A DNA stretch of 64,000 nucleotides from Escherichia phage BUCT632. Numbering within the stretch: the first letter of the stretch is position 1; each line of letters starts with the position of its first letter. Location of the stretch: the sequence record PQ488502.1, one strand, 5' to 3'. Below are positions 30,785-61,882 of the stretch, piece after piece. Both the position numbers and the translations under genes were made by a program. Under the pieces are notes generated by a model that did no database searches, was not told the origin of the DNA, and saw nothing but the letters and a program-made list of their open reading frames with translations.

Positions 30785-31027
30785 TTACGATTCCTTGAGC
30801 AAAGAAGCTAGTTCAGCATAGACTTTATCTAACTCAAAGCCGATGCGAAGAGACACGTTTGTTTTCCGTTGTTTAAGTAACCACTCGGATATGTTAGGGA
30901 TGCCAGCTAATCTGTGCGGTACCACCCTACATAGCTTTTCCGAAGTGTCGTAAACAGGAACTTTACGTTCTTTTACTGGGAACTTCCTTGTTTCCCATTT
31001 TTTATTCTTCACTGTCATTTCTAGCAC
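30785..31027 (-). CDS. Hypothetical protein
   Basis: 80-aa basic ORF. Confidence 0.45.
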   Translation of the reverse strand: MLEMTVKNKKWETRKFPVKERKVPVYDTSEKLCRVVPHRLAGIPNISEWLLKQRKTNVSLRIGFELDKVYAELASLLKES

Positions 31028-33791
31028 CTAGCTCTGCCATTGCTTCATCATGCATATGTTTCTCCTCATCAGTCATAAACTTATACGGGATTGGCATACA
31101 CTCGATTTTACAATAAGTTCTGTACCAGTCTACAATATTCTCCGTGTTCATATCCTTGCCAATACCCATCATACCAAGATACATTCTGGCATATTTTGGG
31201 TTAGCACTCTGACCTGTTTTAAGGAAGAAATCTTTCTTCTTACCTTTCAGAGCTTCTATAAATGGTTTGATAGTGACATTTGAACACTTCTTAATATCTT
31301 CCCAGAACATCTCGTGCATCTTATGGAAGAATGCCGCTCGATCATTAGGTTTATCCTTGATATACTGTTCAACATGCTCAACTGTTACATCTTTAATAGA
31401 CTCAAGATGATAATAGCGAACAAGAAGTAGTTTAGCTTCATACGCATCTGCATGGCGTGGAGCACAATAATCAGGAGTTGAATACAAAATAGCTTTGATT
31501 CGCTCTTCCGTATATTCTTTTCCTGCACCTTCGATAGTTCCCCAGCTTTCACTGAAAATATCAATAGTTGCACCCTGATCAAGCAAGTAGTAACGTAAAG
31601 TACTAGTATAGTTCCTAGATTCCAGCTCTCTACGACGTGCGTATAATTGCTGTGCTAACTCTAGCCAACCTTCATCAATGTTATATTGTTCAGAACCTGC
31701 GGAGAATCCACTCGTAGATTTATCAATAAAATAATAAATGTTCTGAGCGCCACGGTCGCGCCTGATTGCTTGAAAACGCATGTTTGGCGCTTGGTTTGAG
31801 GTTCTAGTAATAACGAATACGTTATCAAAATAGTTGAAGTCAACACCACTCGTTACGGATGGACTACATAATAAGCAATCAATTTGTTGGTCAATTAGCT
31901 CATTAGTTGTGTAATCCAGAATACGTCTAATATCTACATCAGACGTAGAGTTTGAGTGGATTTCCTTAACTAACGCACCCGTATTACGACGCAATGCCAT
32001 GCCCTTCTCATTCAGTTCATCCGGTCCACAGTCAGATACTAGGATAGATTTCTCACCCATCTCTAGAGAAGTCTGAAGTGCAACCCAAATACTGGATTCA
32101 TCCGGGAACTCATAAGCATGAGCTTTTGACAGCATCTTACGGTGATGATTATAAAATGCTACTGGTTTATCAAACTCAATCAAAGAACCATACGCTTCAA
32201 TTGTTTCTGCACTAATATCCCCATCAGATAATATAATAATTTTTGCAGTTGCAAGAATGTCCCGAAGAACCTGTATACATTCACGACGTTGTTTAACAAC
32301 CGGGGCGAATAATAGGTCATTCATTACAGCATCACATTCATCGATAAAGATTACATCAATTTGACCAATAAAACTCTTGAACTTATGCAAAGAGTGAATA
32401 GTTGTGGACATACGGTCAATAGCACCACGCTTAAAATTAAGCATATCTACGGACTTATCATATTGTCCTGCACTAAATTTCTTAGCATTTGAAGATACCA
32501 GTGCTCGAGTATTGGTAATTGCTAAGAAATTACCTTTAATAACTCCTGAATCTAACCAACGCACAACCGCCGTAGTTTTACCTGTACCTAGACTTGCTTT
32601 TACAAAAGTCATATAACCTTCTGGTGGTACAGTATTTAATTTCAAGAAGTTATCAGTTTCTAGAGAATTAGTTTCTAGCTTTTTAAGTGGAATACCTTTT
32701 AAAACATCAGGTATATCACGTTTAGAATTATTAACAAATGCTTTCAGAGCCTGTTTACGACCGTTATTAAAGTAATCTTGAATATTACGACTATTATCTT
32801 TAGTTGCAATATATTCTGATAAGGCTGGGCGGATTTCTTTTTCTAGCCATGCAAAATCAACACCATCCTCCAAAGCTCTGTGATAGAGTTTAGGTATAAT
32901 ACGTAGATACACTCCATCCTCAGCTTCTTCTAGTTCGCTGATAGTTTCCTCTACTTTATCAGAGGCAGCTTTTTTACCCTTAATTTGATCGAGTAAAGAG
33001 TAAAACTCCTCCTTAAACTCACCTCTAGTTGTTTCATAGTCAACCAGATTATTGGGTAAATTTACTTTAGAACCCTTAACAAATACCAGACGTGAAGCAC
33101 CCTCCGCCTTAAACGGATCTACTATACCATCGGTAAATAACGGATCTGCAAAATAGTGGAGCTGTACAGAAGAGTAATAAGCTAAGTCGGCAATATCAAA
33201 GCCATACTTTTGTCTACTACTTTCGTTGATAGATGTAAATAAGAATTTGATTTGACCCTGAGTTACTTTAACATTAGACTCTAGTATTAAGTGCATTCGG
33301 ATACCTGGTTTTAGCCCAGCCGAAGACGATGCATGAGCGATAAACCCTGCATCAAGAGGAAACATATCCTCACTAATACTATTTAACATCCTAATAATAT
33401 GTCGAGCCATGCCAACAAGATCAAACTTGTTACAACCACCTGTATCTACAATACCATCCACGTCCATTGCAATTATATGGCTTGGATTAGATACATTAAA
33501 GTTGCCCTTCTTACGCCGCACATTATTTTTAGGTGCAAGACATCGACCTCGTACCGCAACGATATGAGGGTCAGACGTTAAACGTCTCATAAGAGGAAGC
33601 ATTTCTACTAGGGTTTGAGGATCAACTTCATCAATTACATCAAACTTGAAGGGCATTGAAGCTGGTTTACCTTCAGGATGCTTTGAGGAAAATCTTTTAG
33701 CAAAAAGATAGTCTTCTGCTTTAACTTCTCGCCAATTGCCTGTGGCTAAATCGCGATGAAATCCTGCATGACCTTGTAGGATTGAGAACAC
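31002..33791 (-). CDS. P-loop NTPase / helicase-like replication protein (origin-binding or primase-helicase-like)
   Basis: Walker A ASLGTGKTTAV and Walker B-like FIDECDAV; start tentatively GTG at 33791 after AGGAG (ORF track extends to 33869). Confidence 0.6.
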   Translation of the reverse strand: MFSILQGHAGFHRDLATGNWREVKAEDYLFAKRFSSKHPEGKPASMPFKFDVIDEVDPQTLVEMLPLMRRLTSDPHIVAVRGRCLAPKNNVRRKKGNFNVSNPSHIIAMDVDGIVDTGGCNKFDLVGMARHIIRMLNSISEDMFPLDAGFIAHASSSAGLKPGIRMHLILESNVKVTQGQIKFLFTSINESSRQKYGFDIADLAYYSSVQLHYFADPLFTDGIVDPFKAEGASRLVFVKGSKVNLPNNLVDYETTRGEFKEEFYSLLDQIKGKKAASDKVEETISELEEAEDGVYLRIIPKLYHRALEDGVDFAWLEKEIRPALSEYIATKDNSRNIQDYFNNGRKQALKAFVNNSKRDIPDVLKGIPLKKLETNSLETDNFLKLNTVPPEGYMTFVKASLGTGKTTAVVRWLDSGVIKGNFLAITNTRALVSSNAKKFSAGQYDKSVDMLNFKRGAIDRMSTTIHSLHKFKSFIGQIDVIFIDECDAVMNDLLFAPVVKQRRECIQVLRDILATAKIIILSDGDISAETIEAYGSLIEFDKPVAFYNHHRKMLSKAHAYEFPDESSIWVALQTSLEMGEKSILVSDCGPDELNEKGMALRRNTGALVKEIHSNSTSDVDIRRILDYTTNELIDQQIDCLLCSPSVTSGVDFNYFDNVFVITRTSNQAPNMRFQAIRRDRGAQNIYYFIDKSTSGFSAGSEQYNIDEGWLELAQQLYARRRELESRNYTSTLRYYLLDQGATIDIFSESWGTIEGAGKEYTEERIKAILYSTPDYCAPRHADAYEAKLLLVRYYHLESIKDVTVEHVEQYIKDKPNDRAAFFHKMHEMFWEDIKKCSNVTIKPFIEALKGKKKDFFLKTGQSANPKYARMYLGMMGIGKDMNTENIVDWYRTYCKIECMPIPYKFMTDEEKHMHDEAMAELGARNDSEE

Positions 33792-34282
33792 AACAATACT
33801 CCTGTGTTGGAAATGAAATAAGTTTTCTTTAGGACTATTCAGAAAGAATAGAACAACTGTTACTGTCAATTTCTCAACAAATTAATTGCAAATACTGAAG
33901 TGGGGTGGCAACTTCCACTTTCACGCTGCGCTGCTGCCTCATTATACCGCACAAATCCTTGAGGATGGCCGCTAAGCCAGATTTGCTCACCTAATGCTTC
34001 ATATACTAGCTCATACTAGATGCAATATAACTTACAGAATCACGTCTCGGTAGTTTTTCACTCCTCCCATCTCACTTCACAACCACCTCATACTAGGTTG
34101 CTTCGAGGCCTTACCAGGGTTCCTATGGGACGCAGATCGCTAAGTATTCTATTAACTATTTGTTTAAAAACTAACACGTAACAGTTAAAACAACCCTTAA
34201 TGGGGCAGCCTAACTGTTCCGTATCGCGGATTGTAAACAAGAAAAATTAGCAAAATCAATTTTTACTAATGTCTCTCAATTC

Positions 34283-34320
34283 AATATAAATATTATATCA
34301 AGATTTTGGGCATCATGCAA
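34283..34320 (-). promoter_or_regulatory. Early promoter (TTGCAT-N17-TATAAT, minus strand) upstream of a 500-nt ORF-free leader
   Basis: Reverse complement TTGCATGATGCCCAAAATCTTGATATAAT. Confidence 0.55.
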
Positions 34321-34396
34321 GTAAATTTTTCCCAAAGGTGCTATCAGTGTCTTTGAGCATAGAGAAAACCGAGCCAAAATGACTCGGTTATATGGA

Positions 34397-34591
34397 TTAA
34401 TCATAAAAAAGACCACGAATAGTATTAGCAAATTTAAGTATAATAGCGCGGTTTGAGCTACTTAACTTTTTAATATCGAAAGTGGGATCGGTCAAATATC
34501 TTGCCATAAATTTTACTTGCTTAGCTGAAAGTTGGCCCTTATTCCACTTTTTAATCTTACCATAACATACCCAATATTCTTTATTCATCAT
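34397..34591 (-). CDS. Hypothetical protein
   Basis: 64-aa ORF. Confidence 0.4.
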   Translation of the reverse strand: MMNKEYWVCYGKIKKWNKGQLSAKQVKFMARYLTDPTFDIKKLSSSNRAIILKFANTIRGLFYD

Positions 34592-34973
34592 TTAATCCCG
34601 GAACATATATCCCAACACTATTTAATTGTTCTCTAGCTTCTTTGAGAATATCTGGAGTGTACTCCCAAATATCATCTTCCACCTGTAAAAGATGGGGCGA
34701 ACAACCATCATCCGGCACACGACATATGGCCAGACCACGTGGATGGAACAAAGAGAAATTTAGGGCAACAATCAAGCCCATAGCAGACAACTCATTCCAA
34801 TCCAATTCCCATTCCCCGGCGTATCCAGACAGGAAAACGCCAATGCACGGATCATCTGTTTGCTGCTCAGGAAAAGTGAAGGAGGCTTGTCTTACCCCCA
34901 ACCAACGTTGTAGCAGCTTTTCCGCACGCTTCACCAAACTAGGATCAATCTGACGCCAATATACTTGTTCCAT
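34581..34973 (-). CDS. Hypothetical protein (paralogue of the adjacent 142-aa ORF)
   Basis: Shares ...PCIG...W(K/N)ELDEMGL(V/I)(F/V)ALN... and a C-terminal ...G(Y/I)(Q/Y)(I/V)PGL motif with 34983..35411. Confidence 0.55.
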   Translation of the reverse strand: MEQVYWRQIDPSLVKRAEKLLQRWLGVRQASFTFPEQQTDDPCIGVFLSGYAGEWELDWNELSAMGLIVALNFSLFHPRGLAICRVPDDGCSPHLLQVEDDIWEYTPDILKEAREQLNSVGIYVPGLNDE

Positions 34974-34982
34974 TGTGCCCCC

Positions 34983-35411
34983 TTAGGCAGTTAAACCCGG
35001 AATTTGATAACCAAAACGGCGAAGTTTTTGGATACCATCATTTACTTCTTCCGGTGAGTAAGACCAACCATAACGTTCATTAACCTGGAAACCAGGAGAT
35101 TCACTAGTTTTATAGTTAACAACGAGGCGATGCTTAGCAGGCATAAACAGCTTATAGTTTAACGCAAAAACTAAGCCCATTTCATCTAACTCTTTCCAGC
35201 CTACAATCTCTTCAAGACCCTCCTCTACCTGAACAATTAAACCAATACAGGGAGCCTCATCAATATCATCTTTAAAAGCAAAGGAGATTTCATTATTCTC
35301 ACACCATATTTTCAAGGAGTTAATAGCCTCATTATACAGGCTAGCGGGGAGAGTACGCCAAAAGTTAACTAAAATTGGGTTAGCTTCTTTAGAGAATACA
35401 TTATTGAACAT
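34983..35411 (-). CDS. Hypothetical protein (paralogue of the adjacent 130-aa ORF)
   Basis: Tandem paralogue pair; see 34581..34973. Confidence 0.55.
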   Translation of the reverse strand: MFNNVFSKEANPILVNFWRTLPASLYNEAINSLKIWCENNEISFAFKDDIDEAPCIGLIVQVEEGLEEIVGWKELDEMGLVFALNYKLFMPAKHRLVVNYKTSESPGFQVNERYGWSYSPEEVNDGIQKLRRFGYQIPGLTA

Positions 35412-52863: not shown

Positions 52864-52938
52864 CGGGGTGTAGTCTAAGGGAGAGGCAGGAGTCTTCTAA
52901 ATTCCTTTATGCAGGTTCGAATCCTGTCACCTCGGCCA
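52864..52938 (+). tRNA. tRNA-Arg (anticodon TCT)
   Basis: Hand fold: acceptor CGGGGTG/CACCTCG, anticodon loop CTTCTAA, T-arm GCAGG-TTCGAAT-CCTGT, encoded CCA. Confidence 0.7.
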
Positions 52939-52972
52939 ATTTTATTAACTGTAACTAAAACAAAGGAAACAT

Positions 52973-53920
52973 ATGTTTAATACTAAAAATATGAAAGAAC
53001 TGACTTCTGAGCAGAAAGTAATTCGTACTATTAAACGTTGGGGTATTGGTGCTGTAGTTGGTTTAGCAGGCTTGATTCTAGCTTTTAATTCATATACTAT
53101 TGTTTCTGATGGTACGGTTAAAACCCAAACATTCCTGGGTAAAGTAGATCCTAATCCAGTATTGCCTGGTTTCCATCTTGTAAATCCGTTTGCATCTTTC
53201 GATACTTTTAGTACAAAAGATATTGCTGTAAAATTAGATAAACTTCAGGTTCCTAGCCAGGATAAGTTTAAATCCACTGTTGACCTGACTGTTATGTTGC
53301 AGTTTGATGGTTCTAAGGCACCGATTAACCGTATTAACGCAGGTACTCAGGATCAGGCACTAGACAAGTATGTAACTGAAAAATTATTGTCTACTATTCG
53401 TGAGTTTGGTAAGTCTGTACCTAAAGCACAAGATTTGTTTGATGCTAAAATTCAGGCTCAATTACAAACTGCAATTCAACAGGAAGTTGAAGAGTATGCA
53501 CGCCCATATGGTTACACAGTTAAGCAGGTGTTCCTTCAGGATATTACTCTGCCACCAGTAATCATGGAGCAGGTACAGAATACCAAAGTTCGTGAAGAGC
53601 AAGTTAATGCTGCGAAAGCTGAACTGGCTCGTGTTGAACAGGAAGCACAGCAGAAGGTTAAACAAGCAGAAGCAGATCGTGAAGCTCGTAATAACCAAGC
53701 TATTGCTAATGAACGTGACGCAGATGCTAAACTGTATGCAGCTAAGAAAGAAGCTGAAGCTAACGCCGCACTGCAACGTACCATTACTCCTGAGATGATT
53801 CGTTGGAAACAACTGGAAGTTGAAATGATTCGTGCTCAGAAATATCAAGGTGGTGTACCGCAGACTGTGGTTGGCACTGGCTATGATGGCCAAATGATTA
53901 TGGATATGCGTAATAAATAA
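52973..53920 (+). CDS. SPFH/band-7 (prohibitin/HflC-like) membrane protein
   Basis: N-terminal transmembrane segment (WGIGAVVGLAGLILAF), band-7-like core, C-terminal Ala/Glu/Gln-rich coiled coil. Confidence 0.6.
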   Translation: MFNTKNMKELTSEQKVIRTIKRWGIGAVVGLAGLILAFNSYTIVSDGTVKTQTFLGKVDPNPVLPGFHLVNPFASFDTFSTKDIAVKLDKLQVPSQDKFKSTVDLTVMLQFDGSKAPINRINAGTQDQALDKYVTEKLLSTIREFGKSVPKAQDLFDAKIQAQLQTAIQQEVEEYARPYGYTVKQVFLQDITLPPVIMEQVQNTKVREEQVNAAKAELARVEQEAQQKVKQAEADREARNNQAIANERDADAKLYAAKKEAEANAALQRTITPEMIRWKQLEVEMIRAQKYQGGVPQTVVGTGYDGQMIMDMRNK

Positions 53921-53938
53921 TACCCGCATGTAACATCT

Positions 53939-54035
53939 GAAGTAAGCCCTGCGTTCCCTGGAGAGCGCAGGGTTTTTCTGTATTTAAGATAAAAGAAAAG
54001 CCCCTAAGTCTTTCGACTAGGGGCTTTATTGTTTG
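53939..54035. terminator. Two terminator hairpins between convergent genes
   Basis: CCCTGCG...CGCAGGG+TTTTT and CCCCTAG...CTAGGGG+TTTATTGTTT. Confidence 0.6.
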
Positions 54036-54244
54036 GTTCTTTAGAACCATATACTCTTATTACAGCAACCACCCATACGGGAGGCCAATCTTGACTGAAA
54101 ATCTACTCTAGGGGGCAGGATAAGAGTAGGCTTAAAGGCAAACGGATTGAACGCCGGTATTTGCGTAAACATTGCTGGAGAGCAACAACGTGCTACAGGC
54201 ATTGGGCAGCACGAAACAGATTTTCTGCAACACATAATTCCTCC

Positions 54245-54661
54245 TTAGGAGTTATTACCACCATTTTGAGCTTTTGCAACTTGGCTTTGGCAGAAGCTAT
54301 TAAACTTACCCATAAGTGATACAAGCTGTTTCCCATCCTCTGTCTTTGCGAAGTCTTCGAAAAGGGCTAGTACTGCCTGTCCTTCCGCAGAAACCTGCGA
54401 TTGTTGGGTTTGTTGCTGAACTTGCTGCTGCGGCACCTGTTGCTGCATTTGTTGAGGCATTTGCGACTGCCCGCTCATTTGCTGCATCATTTGTATAGGA
54501 CTCACACTTCCAGGGTTTTGCTGGAGTTGTTGCTGCATCTGTTGCGCTTCTGCTAAACGCTGTTGCAATTGTTGTAAGTAGGGGTTATCCAGACCCGGAA
54601 TGGGCTGCTGGGAGCCCATACTTTGATTAAGTCCGTTATTTACAAAACCATATTTACTCAT
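54245..54661 (-). CDS. Gln-rich hypothetical protein
   Basis: 138 aa with long Q/M-rich low-complexity region; RBS GGAGGAG upstream. Confidence 0.5.
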   Translation of the reverse strand: MSKYGFVNNGLNQSMGSQQPIPGLDNPYLQQLQQRLAEAQQMQQQLQQNPGSVSPIQMMQQMSGQSQMPQQMQQQVPQQQVQQQTQQSQVSAEGQAVLALFEDFAKTEDGKQLVSLMGKFNSFCQSQVAKAQNGGNNS

Positions 54662-54682
54662 AATGGGCTCCTCCCCTTAATA

Positions 54683-55672
54683 TTAAGCCGGCAGTTTAGC
54701 CTGCAGACCAGCCAGAGTCTGAGTGATAGCACCAAGACTTAAAGCGATTTGATTAATTACCTGACCGTTAGCACCGCTACCTGCAGCGATTGCTTCACGT
54801 AGGCGACATGCATCTAACTCATCCTGGATACGCGCAGTAGTTACACCAGCGATCGCAGTCTGAAGTTCACAGCAACATTCAGCGATCTGACGTTCCAGAG
54901 AGTTCTGGTTAGCACACATCTGAGCCTGAACAGCGGCAAACTGGTTATTAGTTTGTAAAGTCTGCTGGAAAGCGATCTGTGCAGAATCAAACTTATCTTG
55001 TGCACGAGCTATCTGGTTAGCTGCGAAAGATTGATCAATCTGGCGAGAAAGATCGAACTGACCCTGAATAACGTTGCGAGTTTCCTGGCAGATCTGATTA
55101 GATAGATTAGCACCTGTACCATAGATCGTAGTTAGTACAGACTGAGTATCACGGCTCTGGTTTTGGGATGTCTGGCTAAAACCATTGTTAACTGCGCTTA
55201 AAACAGCTCCAGTACCCTGGTTAGCTTCTGTACGAGTAGTGTTAATAGCTGCTAGAATACTAGCGGTATCTTGGTTCTGAAGTACTGCATCAACTGCGGT
55301 ACCTTCACCAACTACACCACGTCCACCGAATCCACCGAAACCACCGAATCCGCCTGTTAATAGAGCACCGATTAGGATAGCTCCGAATAGTCCCATACCT
55401 TCACCACCGAAAGCACCTGCGTTTGCTGGGTAACCACCCAGTAGGCCAGGGAAGCCACTAGTGAATACGTTTACTGGTTCTTGCATTTTATGTTTTCCAT
55501 ATTTATGACAATGTTCATCATCATCTTCTTCATCATCTTCATCGTGTTCGCGATGTTTCTCTTCGTAGGCTCTGACCTTCTCCCACTTTTTCTTATCTGA
55601 TTCCTCGTGACGGTGCAGTTCTGCTGCAACGCTAGCGACGGTCTCAGGACTCTTAGCTACTTCTTCTGTCAT
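54683..55672 (-). CDS. Hypothetical protein with acidic His/Asp/Glu stretch, Gly-rich GGFGGFGGFGG segment and Gln/Asn-rich helical C-terminus
   Basis: Start taken at ATG 55672 after RBS AGGAGGTG (ORF track extends to 55732). Confidence 0.5.
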   Translation of the reverse strand: MTEEVAKSPETVASVAAELHRHEESDKKKWEKVRAYEEKHREHDEDDEEDDDEHCHKYGKHKMQEPVNVFTSGFPGLLGGYPANAGAFGGEGMGLFGAILIGALLTGGFGGFGGFGGRGVVGEGTAVDAVLQNQDTASILAAINTTRTEANQGTGAVLSAVNNGFSQTSQNQSRDTQSVLTTIYGTGANLSNQICQETRNVIQGQFDLSRQIDQSFAANQIARAQDKFDSAQIAFQQTLQTNNQFAAVQAQMCANQNSLERQIAECCCELQTAIAGVTTARIQDELDACRLREAIAAGSGANGQVINQIALSLGAITQTLAGLQAKLPA

Positions 55673-55879
55673 TTTTTGACACCTCCTAGTATATAGAAAA
55701 TGTGTGTCTCTTTGATCACTCATCCATAACATATACTTTACACTACCCCAGCGAAAATGTCAAGGGGTCTTTAAAAATTGCCCCCGGATTTTTAGTGGGG
55801 TCACAAATTTTGGTCCTCACCACTTATCTGCTACCCTTAAGTGCCCTATGATTTTCCTCTAAAAAGTTAAAAAATTTGA

Positions 55880-55908
55880 TTGCTTGAATGCTAAATTCTC
55901 TGTATAAT
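55880..55908 (+). promoter_or_regulatory. Promoter (TTGCTT-N17-TATAAT)
   Basis: -35 at 55880-55885, -10 at 55903-55908. Confidence 0.65.
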
Positions 55909-55938
55909 ATATCTATAAATTTGAGAGAGGAACCAAAT

Positions 55939-56457
55939 ATGAATGTTGATGAGCTAACACAGCACCTCTTATCTAGAGGATTTGATACAGATAAATATCA
56001 TTGCTGGTTAAGTCCGGAAGGGTGGCTAACAGTCCCGTTGTATGATTTCTCTGGAATGTTGAGGGGCTATCAAACTTATAATCCTTCTGCTCCAAAAGGT
56101 CATGGTAAGTGCCCATTTGAAGCTAAATACTTTACTTATTCTACTACACAGTGTGTATGGGGACTAGAAACTCTCAATGGAGATGAAAAAGTAGTATTGA
56201 TCGCTGAATCTGTATTTAAGGCAGTTGCGTTACATAATGCGGGTTATCCAGCCCTGGCAATGTTGGGTTCTTCTCCAGGAAAAGCGTTATTAAAGCAACT
56301 GAAATTACTACCTTTTAAATTGGTAGCTGTTGGAGACAATGATCCCGATGGTGAAAAATTTGCTAGACAATTAAATGGATTTGTTTCTCCTGTAGATGTA
56401 GATGAGATGTCTACCGAAAACTTGAAAAATTTTCTTGCTATGAAGCTAAATTTCTAA
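55939..56457 (+). CDS. Small Toprim-domain protein
   Basis: About 172 aa; ...VVLIAESVFKAVALHNAGYPALAMLGSS...LVAVGDNDPDGEKFARQL resembles a Toprim fold (conserved E and DxD). Confidence 0.5.
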   Translation: MNVDELTQHLLSRGFDTDKYHCWLSPEGWLTVPLYDFSGMLRGYQTYNPSAPKGHGKCPFEAKYFTYSTTQCVWGLETLNGDEKVVLIAESVFKAVALHNAGYPALAMLGSSPGKALLKQLKLLPFKLVAVGDNDPDGEKFARQLNGFVSPVDVDEMSTENLKNFLAMKLNF

Positions 56458-56463
56458 TATAAT
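56435..56463 (+). promoter_or_regulatory. Promoter (TTGCTA-N17-TATAAT) embedded in the 3' end of the Toprim ORF
   Basis: -35 at 56435-56440, -10 at 56458-56463. Confidence 0.6.
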
Positions 56464-56478
56464 ATATCTTATAAATTC

Positions 56479-56567
56479 GGAAGAATAGCATAACGGTATT
56501 GCAGCAGATTGCTAATCTGTCGGTTTGAAATATAGCCTTGTGGGTTCGATTCCCACTTCTTCCGCCA
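56479..56567 (+). tRNA. tRNA-Ser (anticodon GCT), type II
   Basis: Acceptor GGAAGAA/TTCTTCC, anticodon loop TTGCTAA, long variable arm, T-arm GTGGG-TTCGATT-CCCAC, CCA. Confidence 0.7.
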
Positions 56568-56573
56568 GATTTT

Positions 56574-56651
56574 GGTTCTCAAGCTCATATGGTATGAGCA
56601 CCCGGCTCATAACCGGAAGGTACGTAGGTTCGAATCCTCGGGGAGCCACCA
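56574..56651 (+). tRNA. tRNA with CAT anticodon (Met or Ile2), weak T-stem
   Basis: Acceptor GGTTCTC/GGGAGCC, D-arm GCTC...GAGC, anticodon loop CTCATAA, TTCGAAT T-loop with only 3 T-stem pairs, CCA. Confidence 0.45.
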
Positions 56652-56669
56652 ATTAAATAGAGGTCACAA

Positions 56670-56858
56670 ATGGATCTATATATAGTTTATGTTGTGTTTA
56701 TTCAAGATAGAGAATACCCGGGTGAATATAAAAAAGGATATAGGTTAGCCAGAGCTACCTCTGAAGCCCAAGCTATGGATAAAGTGGCGGATTATATGAT
56801 TACAGTAGAAAACGTACACTATATCGACTACCTTGAAGCCTCAAAAGTAATTGACTAA
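56670..56858 (+). CDS. Hypothetical small protein
   Basis: 62-aa ORF with RBS. Confidence 0.45.
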   Translation: MDLYIVYVVFIQDREYPGEYKKGYRLARATSEAQAMDKVADYMITVENVHYIDYLEASKVID

Positions 56859-56865
56859 ACTACAC

Positions 56866-56942
56866 GGGGGTGTAATCGAATTGGCATAGGTACTGGACTT
56901 AAAATTCAGGTTTTGTGGGTTCGAATCCCACCACCCCTACCA
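56866..56942 (+). tRNA. tRNA-Leu (anticodon TAA) with short variable loop
   Basis: Acceptor GGGGGTG/CACCCCT, Leu-type D-loop GAATTGGCATA, anticodon loop CTTAAAA, 5-nt variable loop, T-arm GTGGG-TTCGAAT-CCCAC, A73, CCA. Confidence 0.55.
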
Positions 56943-56957
56943 AATTAAGGAAATAAG

Positions 56958-57125
56958 ATGTATAGACATCCACCTCCGCCAACACGTCGTTCTAGGGAAG
57001 TCGTCCTTATGGAATTGACTAAAAACTTCAAGGCAACTCTTGAAGATAGAGATCTGGGCACGGATGAAGACATTGATTTTATTTGTAGACTATTAAAGAT
57101 GAAACTGGAGAAACAACATGGCTAA
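56958..57125 (+). CDS. Hypothetical small protein (55 aa), below the ORF-track cutoff
   Basis: ATG after RBS AAGGAAA. Confidence 0.4.
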   Translation: MYRHPPPPTRRSREVVLMELTKNFKATLEDRDLGTDEDIDFICRLLKMKLEKQHG

Positions 57126-57324
57126 TCCTGAAATTACCGCACAACGTTTCATGCTTAAAGGCATGATTGCTGAGGCAGGTATAACTCAAGAGGTTGCAGA
57201 TTTTCATAAGCAATTTCTTGACATTATAACTCTAGCTAAAGAGACTGGAGAAAAAGAACATGGAGCGGCAATTATGGCTATATCTCTTATTAGTCTAGAC
57301 TTGGCTGAAGAATCTGGAGTTTAG
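57118..57324 (+). CDS. Hypothetical small protein
   Basis: 68-aa ORF. Confidence 0.45.
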   Translation: MANPEITAQRFMLKGMIAEAGITQEVADFHKQFLDIITLAKETGEKEHGAAIMAISLISLDLAEESGV

Positions 57325-57354
57325 CTCCTCCAAACAGAATTTTTAAAAATGTAC

Positions 57355-57384
57355 TTGCCTTTTGCTTTAAATTTCTGATATAAT
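57355..57384 (+). promoter_or_regulatory. Promoter (TTGCCT-N18-TATAAT)
   Basis: -35 at 57355-57360, -10 at 57379-57384. Confidence 0.6.
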
Positions 57385-57414
57385 AGTTATATAAATTGAT
57401 GAAGGAGTTAACGA

Positions 57415-57690
57415 ATGCAAAATCGTGTTATAGCTGCTGGTATTGAAAGTGCAATCTGTAAATCCTGGGAAGGCTGGGAAGGTGAGATTGAATGGCTTTA
57501 TTTCTACGATGTAGAACTTCTGCCGGAAATTAAAGCTAAATGTATTGAAGCTGGCATGGCTCCAGATGCAAAAGCTGATATTGATATTTCAATGTCTGAA
57601 CTTAAAGGTCGTGTAATCACTGTTAGTGATGAGGGCGAAGAAGTTTTTGAACTTCCATTCTCCTTAACTGTCACTCCTAAGTTCGACTAA
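57415..57690 (+). CDS. Hypothetical small acidic protein
   Basis: 91-aa ORF with RBS GAAGGAG. Confidence 0.5.
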   Translation: MQNRVIAAGIESAICKSWEGWEGEIEWLYFYDVELLPEIKAKCIEAGMAPDAKADIDISMSELKGRVITVSDEGEEVFELPFSLTVTPKFD

Positions 57691-57726
57691 CTAATACAGC
57701 ATTGGGCAAGTTCTTTAAAATTTGAC

Positions 57727-57755
57727 TTGCTCAGTGCCTTAAAACTTGATATAAT
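57727..57755 (+). promoter_or_regulatory. Promoter (TTGCTC-N17-TATAAT)
   Basis: -35 at 57727-57732, -10 at 57750-57755. Confidence 0.6.
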
Positions 57756-57879
57756 AGTTATCTAATTTGGAAACATATCTGAATGAGAAGTAATTAGGCG
57801 AGTTGCTTTTAGGGGTAAAGTCAGGAAATCCTGAAATATTCCACCTTGAGTTTAACCGACTTACTTTTCATTCAAATAT

Positions 57880-57960
57880 GGGGGATTGGCTCAGCGGCGA
57901 CGGCGCCTGGCTGTAGACCGGGTATATCACGCGGAGGTTCGAGTCCTCCATCCCCCACCA
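57880..57960 (+). tRNA. tRNA-Tyr (anticodon GTA)
   Basis: Acceptor GGGGGAT/ATCCCCC, 3-bp D-stem, anticodon loop CTGTAGA, 10-nt variable region, T-arm GGAGG-TTCGAGT-CCTCC, CCA. Confidence 0.7.
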
Positions 57961-57978
57961 AATTACTAAGGAAGTAAT

Positions 57979-58524
57979 ATGCACAATAAGTTAATAAATG
58001 AGCTTCAAAAAAGACAGATAATAACAAAAACTAAGGAGTTTGATATAACTCCAGATTTAATAGTTGAATGCTCGAAAGTTTACTTAGAGTTAAGTAATAC
58101 AAAGGCTAAGAAAGTCTCCTTAGGAGATCTTAGATATAATGTTAAACTATTGTGCTTATCCTTAATTAAATTTAAGCAAAAAAATAAACTTCCCATAAAA
58201 GAAGGCTTCATATATTTTATAGCAAATAAGGCCTGGCCCAATTATTTTAAGATTGGTATGTCAGCTAACCCAAAGAAACGCTTAGCAAACTATCAAACAT
58301 ATAGCCCTTTTAGGGACTATACAATGCTACACTGGTCTTTCTGGTTTGATAGAAAGGAAGGCAAAAAGTTTGTCCATAGCCTCTATCAAGATAGGGATCA
58401 TGAATGGGTTAAGTTGCCTCGAAGAAAACTAAATAAAATATTTGAACAAATTAATAAACTTTCTGGCTTGGAACATTTAGTACAGAAAGTTAATAAAGAA
58501 ATAGTTAATGCACCTATCGTCTAA
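57979..58524 (+). mobile_element. T5orf172/GIY-YIG-like domain protein gene (putative homing-endonuclease-like element)
   Basis: GFIYFIANKAWPNYFKIGMSANPKKRLANYQT matches the T5orf172-type motif; AT-rich codon usage; 3' end overlaps the start of tRNA-Glu by 15 nt. Confidence 0.6.
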
Positions 58525-58584
58525 TGGTTAGGACATCAGGATTTCAATCTGAGAATCGGAGTTCAATTCTCCGTGGGTGTACCA
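58510..58584 (+). tRNA. tRNA-Glu (anticodon TTC)
   Basis: Acceptor GCACCTA/TGGGTGT, D-stem GTCT/GGAC, anticodon loop ATTTCAA, T-arm CGGAG-TTCAATT-CTCCG, CCA. Confidence 0.6.
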
Positions 58585-58592
58585 ATTTCTGC

Positions 58593-58669
58593 ATTCCTAG
58601 AGTGTTACTGGACAGCATGTCGGTCTCCAAAACCGTACGGTCTAGGTTCGAGTCCTAGTAGGTTTGCCA
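58593..58669 (+). tRNA. tRNA-Trp-like (anticodon CCA) with two U-U mismatches in the acceptor stem
   Basis: Anticodon arm TCGGT-CTCCAAA-ACCGT, T-arm CTAGG-TTCGAGT-CCTAG, acceptor ATTCCTA/TAGGTTT (5 of 7 pairs), CCA. Confidence 0.45.
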
Positions 58670-58675
58670 AAATTT

Positions 58676-58750
58676 GCACCTTTAGCTGAGATGGATTAGC
58701 GCTTGCCTGAAGAGCTTGAGAGGTTCGTTCGATACGAACAGGGTGCACCA
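58676..58750 (+). tRNA. tRNA-Phe-like (anticodon GAA), imperfect anticodon stem
   Basis: Acceptor GCACCTT/AGGGTGC, D-stem GCTG/TAGC, anticodon loop CTGAAGA, T-arm GTTCG-TTCGATA-CGAAC, CCA. Confidence 0.45.
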
Positions 58751-58767
58751 AATTGAAGGAGCTGCTG

Positions 58768-59040
58768 ATGCATCCTGAAAACTTCTTTATTTACTGCGCG
58801 GATAAGTCGCTGAAACGTAGAATTAACAAAGTCTATCATTATCGTGCTAGTCAACAGCCTTATGTATACGCTTTTGACGGTGATCACATTCCACTAGAAC
58901 AATTATCTTGTGATTACATGATATTGAAGAACTTTGACGAGACGAAGATCTCAAGCGTTCATAATCGACAGAATCCATTAACGTGGAAATATAAGAAGAA
59001 AAAGAAAGGCATCAAATTCTTAAAAAATGTAGTTGCTTAG
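58768..59040 (+). CDS. Hypothetical protein
   Basis: About 90 aa from ATG 58768 after RBS GAAGGAG. Confidence 0.5.
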   Translation: MHPENFFIYCADKSLKRRINKVYHYRASQQPYVYAFDGDHIPLEQLSCDYMILKNFDETKISSVHNRQNPLTWKYKKKKKGIKFLKNVVA

Positions 59041-59061
59041 TTTCCAAAAGTTCTGTATAAT
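59033..59061 (+). promoter_or_regulatory. Promoter (TTGCTT-N17-TATAAT)
   Basis: -35 at 59033-59038, -10 at 59056-59061. Confidence 0.6.
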
Positions 59062-59109
59062 AATTACATAAATTGAACTGGAGAAGCAACATGACAGAAC
59101 AAGATAAAT

Positions 59110-59185
59110 CGACCGTTGGCTGAATGGCTTAGGCGAAGGATTGCAAATCCTTTTTATGTGAGTTCAAATCTCATGCGGTCGTCCA
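59110..59185 (+). tRNA. tRNA-Cys (anticodon GCA)
   Basis: Acceptor CGACCGT/GCGGTCG, anticodon arm AAGGA-TTGCAAA-TCCTT, T-arm GTGAG-TTCAAAT-CTCAT, CCA. Confidence 0.65.
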
Positions 59186-59187
59186 AT

Positions 59188-59327
59188 TTGCTGAAAGAAT
59201 TGTTAAATCAATTCAGGCACGCGTAGGAACACTGTCTCCGTAATTGAAAGATGGGGCACGGTTTGGAGAGGTATGCCGCTACACGCTACGGTGCTAACTC
59301 CGTCTAGGTGAAAATCCTAGTCAGCAA
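59188..59327 (+). ncRNA. tRNA-like structured RNA candidate (about 140 nt)
   Basis: Perfect 7-bp terminal pairing TTGCTGA (59188-59194) with TCAGCAA (59321-59327) next to a T-arm-like hairpin CTAGG-TGAAAAT-CCTAG; no canonical cloverleaf. Confidence 0.3.
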
Positions 59328-59337
59328 TGTAAATTTA

Positions 59338-59420
59338 GGGTCGTTAGCCAAGCGGTTTGGCGGCGGATTGTTAATCCGTGTCGAAAGACAACGTAGGTTC
59401 GAATCCTACACGGCCCGCCA
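59338..59420 (+). tRNA. tRNA-Asn-like (anticodon GTT) with unusually long variable arm
   Basis: Acceptor GGGTCGT/ACGGCCC, 3-bp D-stem, anticodon arm GCGGA-TTGTTAA-TCCGT, 13-nt variable region, T-arm GTAGG-TTCGAAT-CCTAC, CCA. Confidence 0.55.
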
Positions 59421-59522
59421 AATTCTGTGTAGAGTTAAGTAAACCGGTAGCCAATCAGCTATCATTGCTGACATCGAATTCAGCCACAGATACCATTTTC
59501 ATTAATAACTGAGGAAACAAGC

Positions 59523-59708
59523 ATGTCCAAGAATGTAATTGCACAGTTAGAAGTTCATCGTGATAGCACTATCAACAATATTGAAGTTGAGAAGAAATAC
59601 ATCGAAGAACTTAAACATGATATACTAGTAAGTCTTAATCGTCTTAATGTACGAAAAGAGTTTCTTAAAGAACTTAATGCAGCTATTGAAAAACTCAAAG
59701 CTGAGTAA
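59523..59708 (+). CDS. Hypothetical small protein
   Basis: 61-aa coiled-coil-like ORF. Confidence 0.45.
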   Translation: MSKNVIAQLEVHRDSTINNIEVEKKYIEELKHDILVSLNRLNVRKEFLKELNAAIEKLKAE

Positions 59709-59717
59709 ATGAATTAT

Positions 59718-59794
59718 GCGACCGGGGCTGGCTTGGTAATGGTACTCCCCTGTCACGGGAGGGAATGTGGGTTCAAATCCCATCGGTCGCGCCA
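59718..59794 (+). tRNA. tRNA-Asp (anticodon GTC)
   Basis: Acceptor GCGACCG/CGGTCGC, anticodon arm CTCCC-CTGTCAC-GGGAG, T-arm GTGGG-TTCAAAT-CCCAT, CCA. Confidence 0.7.
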
Positions 59795-59820
59795 AACTAA
59801 ACTAGCACGAGAAAAATGCT

Positions 59821-60168
59821 ATGATTAATGCTAAAGAAGAATTGTTACTTGCCCTAAAGAATACTAATTCTGAAGTTAAGTGTATTAAGATAGAATTCGG
59901 TTATTATGGGGACAAAGAAGTTTGGGTATTACCCGTAGGTTATACAGAAAAAGATATTGAAGATTTTCTAAATAATCTAGACTTTAAATATGATTCTGGT
60001 TTCGGTGGACAATTGCTTTATGGTAACGTATGGTTTACTGATGGAACTTGGTTAGAACGTGGTGAATATGATGGTTCTGAATGGTGGGAGTATAAGACTA
60101 CACCAGCAATCCCTGAGGAATGCCGAACAATTAATGGTGAGGTAGATAATACTTTACGGTTAAACTAA
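59821..60168 (+). CDS. Hypothetical protein
   Basis: 115-aa ORF. Confidence 0.5.
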   Translation: MINAKEELLLALKNTNSEVKCIKIEFGYYGDKEVWVLPVGYTEKDIEDFLNNLDFKYDSGFGGQLLYGNVWFTDGTWLERGEYDGSEWWEYKTTPAIPEECRTINGEVDNTLRLN

Positions 60169-60289
60169 TAAAATTTCAGTGCAGAACACGGAGCTAGCAA
60201 TTCGGAAGTGCTGACTCATGATAAGCTGCCTATGTACTTGCGAAGCGGTCGTGTCCAAGACTCGGACTCTTGCACTGAAAACAATCAAA

Positions 60290-60411
60290 CATTCTAGCGT
60301 GGTTGATGGGGAAACCAGCTTGGCGAGGGCAGAAGCTCGTTCGATTCGAGTGAAAGAATGGTTCTCGTAAGTCCGCACAAGTGATAACAGGTTCGAGTCC
60401 TGTCTAGAATG
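60290..60411 (+). ncRNA. tRNA-like structured RNA candidate (about 120 nt)
   Basis: Perfect 7-bp pairing ATTCTAG (60290-60296) with CTAGAAT (60404-60410); canonical T-arm ACAGG-TTCGAGT-CCTGT at 60387-60403 and a second T-arm-like hairpin GCTCG-TTCGATT-CGAGT at 60334-60350; no foldable anticodon arm. Confidence 0.3.
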
Positions 60412-60560
60412 ACACTATAAAGTTTACTTATTATGTAGGTTCCGGTAGATCGGCGGGTCTATTCTGGCATTTAAGAGGGGTCTCGCAAACTTCTTTGTCA
60501 GCCGTGGGGTTGGTAGCCTCCAGGCGGCCTACACAATAAGTAAATTTATTAAAAATTCAT

Positions 60561-60589
60561 TTGCTATTCTGCTTAATTCTCTGTATAAT
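60561..60589 (+). promoter_or_regulatory. Promoter (TTGCTA-N17-TATAAT)
   Basis: -35 at 60561-60566, -10 at 60584-60589. Confidence 0.65.
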
Positions 60590-60621
60590 ATATTTTATAA
60601 AGTGAAGAGAAGGAAAGCAAA

Positions 60622-60780
60622 ATGAAACACAAGATAGCTCAAGTTTTTATGGCATTATGGTGTATGCCAATAGCTGTAACAGCTTTTAATCTAGATACTT
60701 TTACTATAGAAGAAAAATGTATCGGATTAGTTAGCGGCTTTAGTATGCTTGGCTTATCTTTGTTGTGGTTGAAGAAATAA
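60622..60780 (+). CDS. Hypothetical small hydrophobic protein (52 aa), below the ORF-track cutoff
   Basis: ATG after RBS GAAGGAAAG; two hydrophobic segments. Confidence 0.45.
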   Translation: MKHKIAQVFMALWCMPIAVTAFNLDTFTIEEKCIGLVSGFSMLGLSLLWLKK

Positions 60781-60784
60781 TATT

Positions 60785-60862
60785 CTCCGTGTAGCTCAGT
60801 TTGGCCAGAGCGTTTCGTTTGGGGCGATAGGGTCGGGGGTTCAAATCCTCCCACGGAGACCA
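60785..60862 (+). tRNA. tRNA-Pro (anticodon TGG)
   Basis: Acceptor CTCCGTG/CACGGAG, D-stem GCTC/GAGC, anticodon loop TTTGGGG, T-arm GGGGG-TTCAAAT-CCTCC, CCA. Confidence 0.65.
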
Positions 60863-60868
60863 AACAAT

Positions 60869-60946
60869 TGCGGGTTAGATCTCTGGTAGAGATCGCTAGT
60901 CTCATAAGCTAGAAAGAGGTAGGTTCGATTCCTGCACCCGCTTCCA
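60869..60946 (+). tRNA. tRNA with CAT anticodon (Met or Ile2), U1-U72 mismatch
   Basis: Acceptor TGCGGGT/ACCCGCT, D-stem GATC/GATC, anticodon arm CTAGT-CTCATAA-GCTAG, T-arm GTAGG-TTCGATT-CCTGC, CCA. Confidence 0.6.
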
Positions 60947-60966
60947 TTTTAATAGGGGATTTCGAA

Positions 60967-61134
60967 ATGAAAGTATTTCGATTAGTAGTAAGTGACAAAC
61001 GTTTAGGTAAGAATACCTCAAAATCATTACTTGCTCATTATGGTAAAAATTGGGATGAAGTAATGGTAGAGTTTAATACTAATCACCCTTACTTGAAAGT
61101 TCACTCTATTAAAGAAGTATACAATGGTTACTAA
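60967..61134 (+). CDS. Hypothetical small protein (55 aa), below the ORF-track cutoff
   Basis: ATG 60967; stop just before tRNA-Lys. Confidence 0.4.
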   Translation: MKVFRLVVSDKRLGKNTSKSLLAHYGKNWDEVMVEFNTNHPYLKVHSIKEVYNGY

Positions 61135-61135
61135 T

Positions 61136-61214
61136 AGATCGCTAGCTCAATAGGTTTAGTAGCATCCGACTTTTAATCGGAAGGTTCTGGGTTCGAGTCC
61201 CAGGCGATCTACCA
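61136..61214 (+). tRNA. tRNA-Lys (anticodon TTT)
   Basis: Acceptor AGATCGC/GCGATCT, anticodon arm TCCGA-CTTTTAA-TCGGA, T-arm CTGGG-TTCGAGT-CCCAG, CCA; long D-loop. Confidence 0.65.
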
Positions 61215-61232
61215 ATTTCAAGAAAAACGCAG

Positions 61233-61261
61233 TTGCTTGATGCTTAATTTCTTGTTATAAT
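61233..61261 (+). promoter_or_regulatory. Promoter (TTGCTT-N17-TATAAT) followed by a perfect hairpin
   Basis: -35 at 61233-61238, -10 at 61256-61261; GATGAGGA-GAAA-TCCTCATC at 61275-61298. Confidence 0.6.
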
Positions 61262-61499
61262 ATTTATATAAATTGATGAGGAGAAATCCTCATCATAGTT
61301 CACTAAGGTATTAGCTCGACCTAGGACTGGCTGCCAAAAAGCACGATCCCCATGATTCGGGAGAAGTTCTAGATTGGTCCACTAGATTCAGCGGCAACTG
61401 AATAGTGTATTGGGTTTGCGAGATGACGCAGTTCCTTCCGCTCGAAGCGAAGGTGCTGTAGTTACGCCGAGCTAATAGCCTTAGTAAACTAAAGAATTT

Positions 61500-61578
61500 G
61501 GGGAATGGGTCTGCATGGAGTGGACACCTCGCTTGCACCGAGGACATCAGAACGGTTCGATTCCGTTATTCTCCACCA
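61500..61578 (+). tRNA. tRNA-Ala (anticodon TGC) with G3-U70 pair
   Basis: Acceptor GGGGAAT/ATTCTCC with G3-U70 wobble, D-stem GTCT/GGAC, anticodon arm CCTCG-CTTGCAC-CGAGG, T-arm AACGG-TTCGATT-CCGTT, CCA. Confidence 0.65.
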
Positions 61579-61583
61579 AATAC

Positions 61584-61660
61584 GCGTGATTGATGGAATT
61601 GGCATACATACCGTCCTTAGAAGTCGGGTTTTGAGGGTTCGAATCCCTTGTCACGCACCA
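61584..61660 (+). tRNA. tRNA-Leu (anticodon TAG) with short variable loop
   Basis: Acceptor GCGTGAT/GTCACGC, Leu-type D-loop GAATTGGCATA, anticodon loop CTTAGAA, 5-nt variable loop, T-arm GAGGG-TTCGAAT-CCCTT, A73, CCA. Confidence 0.55.
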
Positions 61661-61863: not shown

Positions 61864-61882
61864 AACACTTGAGGTAATAATA

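Follow-up and report, generated by a model that had tools for sequence, protein, structure and literature searches.

We examined the region upstream of the D2 helicase gene in a stretch of 64,000 nt from Escherichia phage BUCT632 (PQ488502.1), referred to below as the window, which is that of a T5-like phage (Demerecviridae, Tequintavirus). The 801 bases around the D2 leader share 99.5% identity with Salmonella phage S124 and match 529 phage records, and all genes around it lie on the minus strand. A flagged interval of 605 nt (33792-34396) is bordered on its 5' side by a 64-aa ORF (34397-34591, minus strand, stop at 34397) and on its 3' side by the GTG of D2 at 33791, and within it the leader covers 494 nt (33792-34285, minus strand). 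An intrinsic terminator ends the upstream operon and forms the 5' boundary of the transcription unit; it is kept in relatives, and the homologous terminator is annotated in the T5 GenBank and RefSeq records. It is followed by a T5-type early promoter, from the spacing of which we predict a +1 at ~34285. A preliminary description of the DNA had placed a minus-strand promoter at about 34283-34320, and this proves to be a real consensus match that is almost unchanged in all Tequintavirus-like loci. T5 carries an annotated 'promoter' at the homologous site, and there the terminator and the promoter are the only features given in the GenBank and RefSeq records for the 471 nt before T5.108, the orthologue of the window's D2.

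Across the leaders that we collected, the distance from promoter to start codon is 515-541 nt, with the exception of three phages that carry a 97-nt insertion, located between helices P1 and P2 (Table 1), and two Providencia-type phages with 656-660 nt. An ORF-poor stretch precedes the homologous gene in all distant Demerecviridae checked. A tRNA/tmRNA scan found no such gene in the leader region, the tRNA genes of the window being ~19 kb away. The GC enrichment mentioned in the preliminary description is weak and local: a 200-nt peak of 46.5% lies at 33900-34099 and the core of the leader reaches 41.7%, whereas the leader as a whole, at 39.1%, does not exceed the window at 39.4%. On the RNA strand, the core contains 25.6% G and 16.1% C.

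The downstream gene, D2 (31002-33791, minus strand), starts with GTG and encodes 929 aa, with the Pfam domain Herpes_ori_bp at aa 394-533, and its homologues are often annotated 'replication origin binding protein'. Wong et al. cloned the T5 D2 helicase from the same GTG start, with the Pfam domain at 392-532, likened it to the herpesvirus origin-binding helicase UL9 and cited D2 amber mutants that show no net DNA synthesis (PMC3632103). The N-terminal domain of D2 contains hhhDhD, SxSxGxKxGIRxH and D202 motifs that are invariant across the family. By inspection of the motifs alone, these appear to resemble motifs I-III of archaeo-eukaryotic primases (primase-polymerases), an assignment to which Pfam, PHROGs and PDB sequence and profile searches lend no support. 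A homologue search with this domain returned two fragments, and its single-sequence AlphaFold model (pLDDT 34.7) was unusable.

As the preliminary description had stated for a stretch of ~500 nt, the leader contains no ORF of 60 aa or more, its longest ORFs being 53, 51, 50 and 38 aa. We found no reading frame conserved across lineages, and the longest ORFs fall in differing frames. Specifically, the 50-aa ORF of the window type meets a stop after ~21 codons in T5, the near-invariant nucleotides UACGGAACAGUU.GGCUGCCCCAU lie in another frame in L036 and L037, two of the collected loci, and the ORFs of the remaining lineages are unrelated. Depositors have left this stretch blank or given it small 'hypothetical proteins'; in the record of phage Baret, three such CDSs of 102-153 nt are annotated in it. 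These three CDSs, together with the window's own ORFs of 38-53 aa, are what could speak for genes of small proteins in the leader. We consider this reading extremely improbable and dropped it, since no frame is kept among relatives and the substitutions preserve pairing and are not codon-like. Annotations of Demerecviridae should drop ORF calls in the leader region.

Table 1 Features of the D2 leader and its surroundings in the window. RNA nucleotides are numbered from 34285; helices are those of the predicted fold.
Feature	Window position	Strand	RNA nt	Description
Intrinsic terminator	34367-34389	-		Terminator scan; AACCGAGTCATTTTGGCTCGGTT then T-run; ends upstream operon
T5-type early promoter	34292-34335	-		Consensus match: A-tract, -35 TTGCAT (34315-34320), TGn and -10 TATAAT (34292-34300)
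P1, 5' hairpin	34235-34281	-	5-51	GAGAGAC..AUUAGUAAAA / UUUUGCUAAU..UUUUCUU
P2 helix	34190-34234	-	52-96	Closes conserved 24-nt loop UACGGAACAGUUNGGCUGCCCCAU
P3, 5' strand	34143-34187	-	99-143	Closing helix; folds and pair counts
Core multi-branch domain	33923-34140	-	146-363	Consensus folds and pair counts
P4			146-156 with 355-363	
P5			from 157	P5a and P5b carry GAAG/GAAG internal loops
GAGA(A/C)GUGAU				Conserved single-stranded run in core
P8a hairpin GGCUUAGCGGCC	33967-33978	-		Closed by P8; contains octamer CUUAGCGG
P9 hairpin AGUGGAAGUUGCCACCCCACU	33899-33919	-	367-387	Inverted repeat in sequence
P3, 3' strand	33854-33896	-	390-432	Closing helix; folds and pair counts
P10 hairpin CUAUUC UUUCU GAAUAG	33835-33851	-	435-451	Folds
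Shine-Dalgarno and D2 start	33789-33802	-		AGGAG (33798-33802), GTG (33789-33791)

We gathered leaders from IMG/VR, metagenomes and GenBank phages, of which the metagenomes contributed little diversity. Single-sequence folds from six lineages, with differing sequences, have one shared architecture, and the consensus folds of the window-type and T5-type groups match helix for helix. A hand-curated model of 139 pairs, based on the RNAalifold consensus of a G-INS-i alignment, was counted on an independent alignment, A5, with 19 leaders from seven lineages, namely 12 of the window type (three sub-lineages), L051, four Klebsiella phages, L036 and L037 (Pectobacterium phage My1). A5 is MAFFT-based and hand-curated, without Infernal or structure refinement, which works against the model and not for it. 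Of its 2548 cells, 87.7% are paired, as opposed to 36-48% when the pairing partners are slid by 1-3 columns and 78.5% when shuffled. Changes on both sides are seen at 67 of the 139 pairs (slid, 25-32; shuffled, 35) and in 190 cells (slid, 52-69; shuffled, 58). As close relatives make up much of the 19-sequence set, these counts overstate the independent events. The covariation score is 0.275 (slid, 0.06-0.11; shuffled, 0.146), and none of 500 shuffles reached the observed values on these four measures. The best helices are P8, P4 and P3, with two-sided changes at 7 of 8, 5 of 9 and 17 of 37 pairs, respectively, followed by P9 and P7. In the T5 and Epseptimavirus-like group taken alone, 99.7% of cells are paired and 6 pairs have changed on both sides, compared with 0-1 after sliding.

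The fold is strand-specific. G.U cells in A5 outnumber A.C cells by 430 to 47 (17% vs 2% of paired cells), an excess indicating that the fold belongs to the transcribed strand. The folding energy of the core is -95.4 kcal/mol (z -2.7) in sense and -74.6 kcal/mol (z -2.0) in antisense, a gap of 21 kcal/mol. Moreover, the first helix starts a few nucleotides after the predicted +1, and the P4-P9 domain is 253-264 nt long in all lineages. With compensatory pairing beyond the controls and a fold specific to one strand, the leader has the general properties expected of a conserved structured RNA, as judged by sequence comparison. We conclude from this covariation that the leader is the template of a large structured RNA of ~430 nt before the D2 helicase gene, and that it is the fold of the transcribed strand that is under selection, rather than any reading frame or the sequence of the duplex DNA. 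The preliminary description had offered a regulatory leader or a non-coding RNA among its possibilities, and the RNA readings gain support from the strand-specific covariation, the upstream promoter and the missing conserved frame. It had also named two observations that would count against function, a conserved coding ORF and poor conservation in relatives, and neither of them was made.

Some alignments and models served less well. A 295-position covariance model of the T5-type core, R1, recovers window-type cores at full length with just 20-25 bits, their interior being treated as insertions, and misses the Klebsiella, L036 and My1 lineages; it is unsuitable for aligning the whole family. 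The MAFFT sub-alignments A6, A7 and A10 displaced the CUUAGCGG hairpin or stems, and no models were therefore built from them. A long-range ACAAU/AUUGU pairing near the start codon, proposed by RNAalifold, was dropped since it is not conserved in other lineages.

The predicted RNA begins with P1, which is present in the single-sequence folds of all six lineages with differing stems and has 6 of 17 pairs changed on both sides. The P2 loop, UACGGAACAGUUNGGCUGCCCCAU, holds a small hairpin (CAGU/GCUG) and is near-invariant from T5 to Pectobacterium phage My1. Compensatory changes are found both in P2 itself (C-G to U-A between L049 and L052) and in its inner hairpin (A-U to G-C in L051). P3 comprises ~37 bp in three segments of 19, 11 and 7 pairs, with 87-90% of cells paired, and in the model it has the length of an RNase III substrate (at least about 20 bp of near-continuous dsRNA). 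The core that it closes holds P4, P5 (P5a/P5b), the P6 hairpin, the GAGA(A/C)GUGAU run, P7 with P7a, and P8. Every lineage that carries the RNA, the Providencia-type phages and L038 among them, has the octamer CUUAGCGG in P8a unchanged, and the octamer columns are invariant in alignments A5, A7 and A10. The closing pair of P8a changes from G-C to A-U in L037, and 96% of the cells of the enclosing P8 are paired.

The inverted repeat GAAGTGG...CCACTTC, which the preliminary description had located near 33897-33925, exists and corresponds to helix P9. One P9 pair shows compensatory changes from U-A to G-C and A-U in 8 sequences. At the same place, the T5 type has a different hairpin, AUAUGA..UCAUAU, with a compensatory change of its own. 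Other lineages carry CUAUC/GAUAG or CUUUCC/GGAAAG at the position of P10. No U-run follows P10 and the terminator scan is negative there, indicating that P10 is not a terminator; it is followed by an A/U-rich linker, the Shine-Dalgarno sequence and the GTG. The inner helices P5b, P6 and P7a are less certain than P3, P4, P8 and P9.

Comparison with T5 divides the leader into three parts: nt 1-108 are 100% identical, nt 109-421 are 42.8% identical and the remainder is 84% identical, with flanking genes at 81-97%. The divergent core is ~310 nt long, the breakpoints lie inside P3, and the cassette comprises the core domain, inner P3 and P9. Window-type and T5-type cores differ in length by at most 2 nt, and the 3' subdomain is 152 nt in both. 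For helices that can be placed in register between the two types, pairing is complete (100%), and two-sided changes are seen at 4 of 9 pairs in P4 and at 4 of 8 in P8. In this comparison of window and T5 types the core behaves as a cassette. Its sequence has been replaced between close relatives with the pairing kept, unlike the way in which double-stranded protein-binding sites evolve. In the D2 protein, 29 residues separate carriers of the two core types perfectly. All of them fall within aa 36-419, and 18 of the 29 fall in aa 362-419, a variable linker; linkage of the adjacent loci is a sufficient explanation for this co-segregation.

A similar pattern is seen in Thalassavirus (Vibrio), where Achelous and Pontus/KIT04 share the first ~165 nt and the last ~30 nt and have interiors that cannot be aligned, in stretches of 712 and ~840 nt, respectively. 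Between Pontus and KIT04, 36% of the affected predicted pairs stay paired, compared with 21 +/- 6% for random substitutions, which is only suggestive of a maintained fold. The ORF-poor regions of the Vibrio and Aeromonas phages, which may or may not be homologous to the T5 RNA, measure 0.7-1.6 kb; that of Aeromonas phage TS3 has three UUAGCGG motifs. A scan of IMG/VR with a 16-nt motif of the conserved loop returned mostly chance matches, and its combination with CUUAGCGG ~220 nt downstream occurred only in T5-like contigs. Within this search, the RNA appears confined to one phage family.

No known RNA family accounts for the element. A cmscan of window 33000-35200 against Rfam 15, whose families include GOLLD, ROOL, HEARO, riboswitches, T-box, 6S and group I and II introns, at E up to 10, gave a MicF-like match and noise only, and we discarded the MicF-like match (34.4 bits, gathering score 79) because it is only the upstream terminator hairpin. 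Six relatives gave no hits at the Rfam gathering threshold, the leader has no match in 5,426 E. coli genomes that would suggest host mimicry, and the literature searched holds neither a T5 transcriptome nor a described RNA at the D2 leader. We therefore read the element, by its covariation and the missing Rfam match, as a new family of large structured RNAs of T5-like phages that is attached to D2. Despite seventy years of work on T5 as a model phage, this RNA is absent from Rfam and from the literature searched. As a covarying RNA of ~430 nt with an invariant loop, placed before the essential D2 gene in several hundred sequenced phages, it would add a class to the short list of large structured RNAs of bacteria and phages. 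It could explain the control of D2 expression or the initiation of T5 replication, both poorly understood, and its two interchangeable core types provide a natural swap experiment.

A replication origin was another possibility raised in the preliminary description, with GC skew among the checks proposed for it. We found no iterons or tandem repeats in the leader other than short two-copy chance repeats, no DnaA box with up to one mismatch in 33792-34396, and no plus-strand promoter-like site, as for an antisense promoter of the RNA I type, in 33500-34800. The cumulative GC skew has its extremes at 12,931 and 39,481 and descends monotonically through 34 kb, with no turn in the leader region. 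In phage phiLLS, an 'origin' assigned by GC skew lies ~3.5 kb upstream of the equivalent gene (PMC5519627). It probably marks the same strand switch. All tests run for an origin came out negative, and the origin reading is unsupported. Electron microscopy reportedly placed the first T5 origin near the genome centre, a location that the T5 element, at 48.5-48.9% of the genome, would fit. The strand bias of recombitron editing in T5 argues otherwise, as its authors take it to mean that replication is dominantly unidirectional and starts at one end of the genome (PMC10055335).

Among the possible roles of the RNA, we rank first that of a cis-acting leader domain of the D2 operon, to which we give, the structured nature of the RNA included, a somewhat better than even chance. 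Transcription would start at the predicted +1, from the strong T5-type early promoter, and continue into D2. The first ~450 nt fold into P1, P2 with its 24-nt loop, a self-contained multi-branch domain of ~335 nt that is closed by P3 and most conserved in its CUUAGCGG hairpin loop, and P10, with P10 and the A/U-rich linker separating the domain from the ribosome-binding site. Acting in cis, the domain could serve as a platform to which a protein or small ligand binds, and the platform might set the amount of D2 or the read-through of transcription. P3 would be a plausible entry site for RNase III, by which the domain could be released or stabilised, and the core may be exchanged as a cassette among related phages through recombination in the conserved flanks.

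The order terminator, promoter, leader, gene argues for a cis-acting leader, and the same layout is annotated in T5. In addition, the terminator scan and the alignment show no terminator between the RNA and D2 in the Tequintavirus, Klebsiella and Pectobacterium lineages, and folding of 13 leaders predicts a mostly paired start codon in 9 of them. In Vibrio phage 70E34-1a, two terminator-like hairpins lie 85-130 nt ahead of the gene and are followed by no promoter-like site, a layout that looks attenuator-like. Counting against a cis-acting leader, P3, P10 and the variable linker insulate the domain from the ribosome-binding site, and no conserved alternative pairing of the domain with the Shine-Dalgarno sequence was found in T5-like leaders. 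The size of ~430 nt also counts against it, being far above that of known autoregulatory operators and of most riboswitches. One candidate switch, in which AACAGUU of the P2 loop would pair with AACUGUU of the P3 5' strand, shows no covariation and was dropped: P3 changes in the Epseptimavirus-like, L036 and L037 lineages with no matching change in the P2 loop.

The RNA could instead be autonomous and act in trans, either standing alone like GOLLD and ROOL or acting on a host factor or defence system as a decoy or sponge; in T5-like phages it would then have only the promoter in common with D2 and be freed by processing at P3. We hold this to be unlikely. In its favour, the domain is self-contained and closed by P3, its size is unusual for a leader, and the 97-nt insertion between P1 and P2 is tolerated. 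In L038, the RNA region and D2 have separate promoters that each match the consensus perfectly (12/12), the second lying between the RNA and D2; the RNA is not needed there as a 5' UTR, and an autonomous RNA fits better. Terminators before the gene would also suit it, and besides the two hairpins that the scan finds in 70E34-1a, a terminator-like hairpin with a U-run can be seen by eye in Aeromonas TS3, although the scan omits it. The Tequintavirus, Klebsiella and Pectobacterium lineages, by contrast, have none before D2. The core is replaced like a cassette in two distant clades, which would fit the target of an arms race, but ordinary homologous recombination in conserved flanks would be expected to give this pattern as well. 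Furthermore, the place beside D2 is never lost in the genomes examined, and neither the E. coli genomes nor Rfam contain anything similar to the RNA.

Closer to replication, the transcript may be part of the primary origin, folding and forming an R-loop or primer beside the initiator gene that D2 uses or recognises, after the model of ColE1 RNA II and the promoter-dependent origins of T7 and T4, with the variable core as determinant of replicon specificity. We rank this minority reading second, slightly ahead of a trans-acting RNA. Its position next to D2, an essential candidate initiator helicase, is kept family-wide, the promoter is strong and dedicated, the transcript is richer in G than in C, and the T5 element lies near mid-genome. 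The leader, on the other hand, lacks iterons, DnaA boxes and tandem repeats, an inflection of the GC skew and an antisense promoter of the RNA I kind, and the recombitron strand bias is read by its authors as T5 replication from one end (PMC10055335). In the D2 protein, the 29 residues that separate core types within aa 36-419 and the seemingly primase-like N-terminal residues would suit recognition of the RNA, but plain linkage can explain the co-segregation, the cluster at aa 362-419 is a variable linker, and neither Pfam nor PDB backs the primase-like assignment. A more specific form, to which we give rather little credence, would make the RNA a partner dedicated to the D2 initiator, as a structured origin transcript, a primer or a cofactor, and recognised by the possibly primase-like N-terminal half, with the core setting which D2 variant fires which genome. 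If true, a classical model phage, with an origin never defined at sequence level, would have a replication origin specified by an RNA. The same hairpins might act as DNA, either in single strands, as an initiation or primosome-assembly site for the N-terminal domain of D2, or as a cruciform in the duplex. Inverted repeats are present, D2 is the adjacent gene, and there are precedents in HSV UL9, which recognises a hairpin form of oriS, and in RSF1010 RepB', which primes on ssi hairpins. We nevertheless regard a DNA-level element as very improbable: the excess of G.U over A.C is not expected of a cruciform, G.T being poor in DNA, the P3 and P4 pairings span >300 nt compared with 40-100 nt for known ssi sites, and the fold begins just past the predicted +1.

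In behaviour the element resembles ColE1 RNA II, GOLLD/ROOL or very large leaders, and by the criteria examined for each class it could be assigned to none. Like RNA II, it is a transcript of ~500 nt with its own promoter that keeps its structure while its sequence splits into types, and it adjoins a point where replication functions act; unlike RNA II, it has no antisense RNA I promoter and no sequence or Rfam similarity, and it precedes a co-transcribed protein gene. With GOLLD and ROOL it shares a length of >400 nt, a multi-branched, covariation-supported fold and a phage-borne location. It differs from them in having no covariance-model match at E up to 10, in not lying beside tRNA genes, and in being the 5' leader of a replication gene in, as far as searched, one phage family. 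Riboswitch, T-box and attenuator leaders are also structured, covarying 5' leaders on the strand of their gene, and the non-coding stretch of one distant relative ends in terminator-like hairpins before the gene. However, T5-like leaders have no domain-tied terminator or conserved helix sequestering the Shine-Dalgarno sequence, and the element is two to four times the size of a typical aptamer.

Two further systems resemble the element in their place in early phage transcripts. HK022 put RNAs and other cis-acting antitermination RNAs are, like it, promoter-proximal structured RNAs heading a long early operon. The put RNA is ~70 nt with two stem-loops, whereas the leader element has ~430 nt and more than ten helices, the similarity of the two having been compared via Rfam only. 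The RNase III signals of T7 and lambda share with the element a long near-perfect duplex in an early transcript. Theirs are simple hairpins, whereas P3 surrounds a conserved domain of 260 nt whose loops are invariant, and selection on the leader is maintaining more than processing.

The D2 helicase (929 aa; T5 orthologue T5.108), whose gene follows the structured non-coding leader RNA, has an N-terminal half that is uncharacterised, and searches of Pfam, PHROGs and the PDB with residues 1-390 returned no match. Eight residues in this half, D110, D112, S155, S157, G159, R165, H167 and D202, are invariant from T5 to the Vibrio and Aeromonas phages, and at the sequence level their pattern resembles motifs I-III of archaeo-eukaryotic primases. 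Toward the end of the same half lies an island where nucleotide identity to T5 falls to 67-72%, compared with 81-96% on either side. This island coincides in position with those residues that co-segregate with the type of the RNA core, the cassette-like interior of the leader RNA, which is of either the window type or the T5 type.

The leader RNA itself carries an insert between its first two helices, P1 and P2, in three relatives (L012, L025 and L034), at a point equivalent to about position 34238 of the window. The three copies are near-identical to each other, are flanked on both sides by the direct repeat TTTTTCTT, contain a hairpin of their own (ATTTACGG..CCGTAAAT), and are found with both core types among the carrier phages. 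The insert looks like a small mobile element or an extra stem-loop. In the window, the conservation of a second promoter-like site goes together with that of P1.

Some relatives have an HNH-type endonuclease ORF inserted upstream of the leader promoter, where it separates the promoter from the DUF7415 gene and takes the place of the usual terminator and promoter context. The 64-aa ORF of the window has no Pfam match; it is shared with the closest relatives and missing in T5. Depositors have also annotated 'hypothetical protein' CDSs of 90-170 nt inside the non-coding region of three loci, and these are probably spurious gene calls atop structured RNA. Among the distant relatives Vibrio phage 70E34-1a, Aeromonas phage TS3 and L038, the wiring of the non-coding region to the helicase gene varies, and the stretch of TS3 without annotated genes contains three TTAGCGG motifs.

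Features of the window and of related loci (L0xx)
Feature	Location	Strand	Remarks
D2 residues 1-390	window 32622-33791	-	N-terminal half
Low-identity island	window 32636-32736	-	D2 residues about 352-385
97-nt insert	L012:1958-2054; L025:1960-2056; L034:1957-2053		leader RNA, between P1 and P2
Second promoter-like site	window 34230-34259	-	TTGATT-18-TACAAT; within 3' strand of P1
HNH-type endonuclease ORF, 162-168 aa	L008:1477-1965; L015:1479-1967; L028:1338-1844		sequence ..DLVDHVNTIKGDDRIENLRE..
64-aa ORF	window 34397-34591	-	directly upstream of terminator
Short annotated CDSs	L002:1675-2177 (phage Baret); L040:1519-1689; L041:1308-1932		inside non-coding region
Two tandem terminator-like hairpins	L041:1869-1916 (Vibrio phage 70E34-1a)		before helicase gene
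1.6 kb without annotated gene	L042:219-1808 (Aeromonas phage TS3)		
Two perfect sigma-70 consensus promoters	L038:1705-1733; 2435-2464		flank non-coding region, one per side
tRNA gene cluster (20 genes)	window 52864-63957	+	

Across the window, the maximum and minimum of cumulative GC skew, at 12931 and 39481, match a block of minus-strand genes, and probably represent transcription strand switches rather than replication landmarks. The tRNA gene cluster is usual for T5-like phages.
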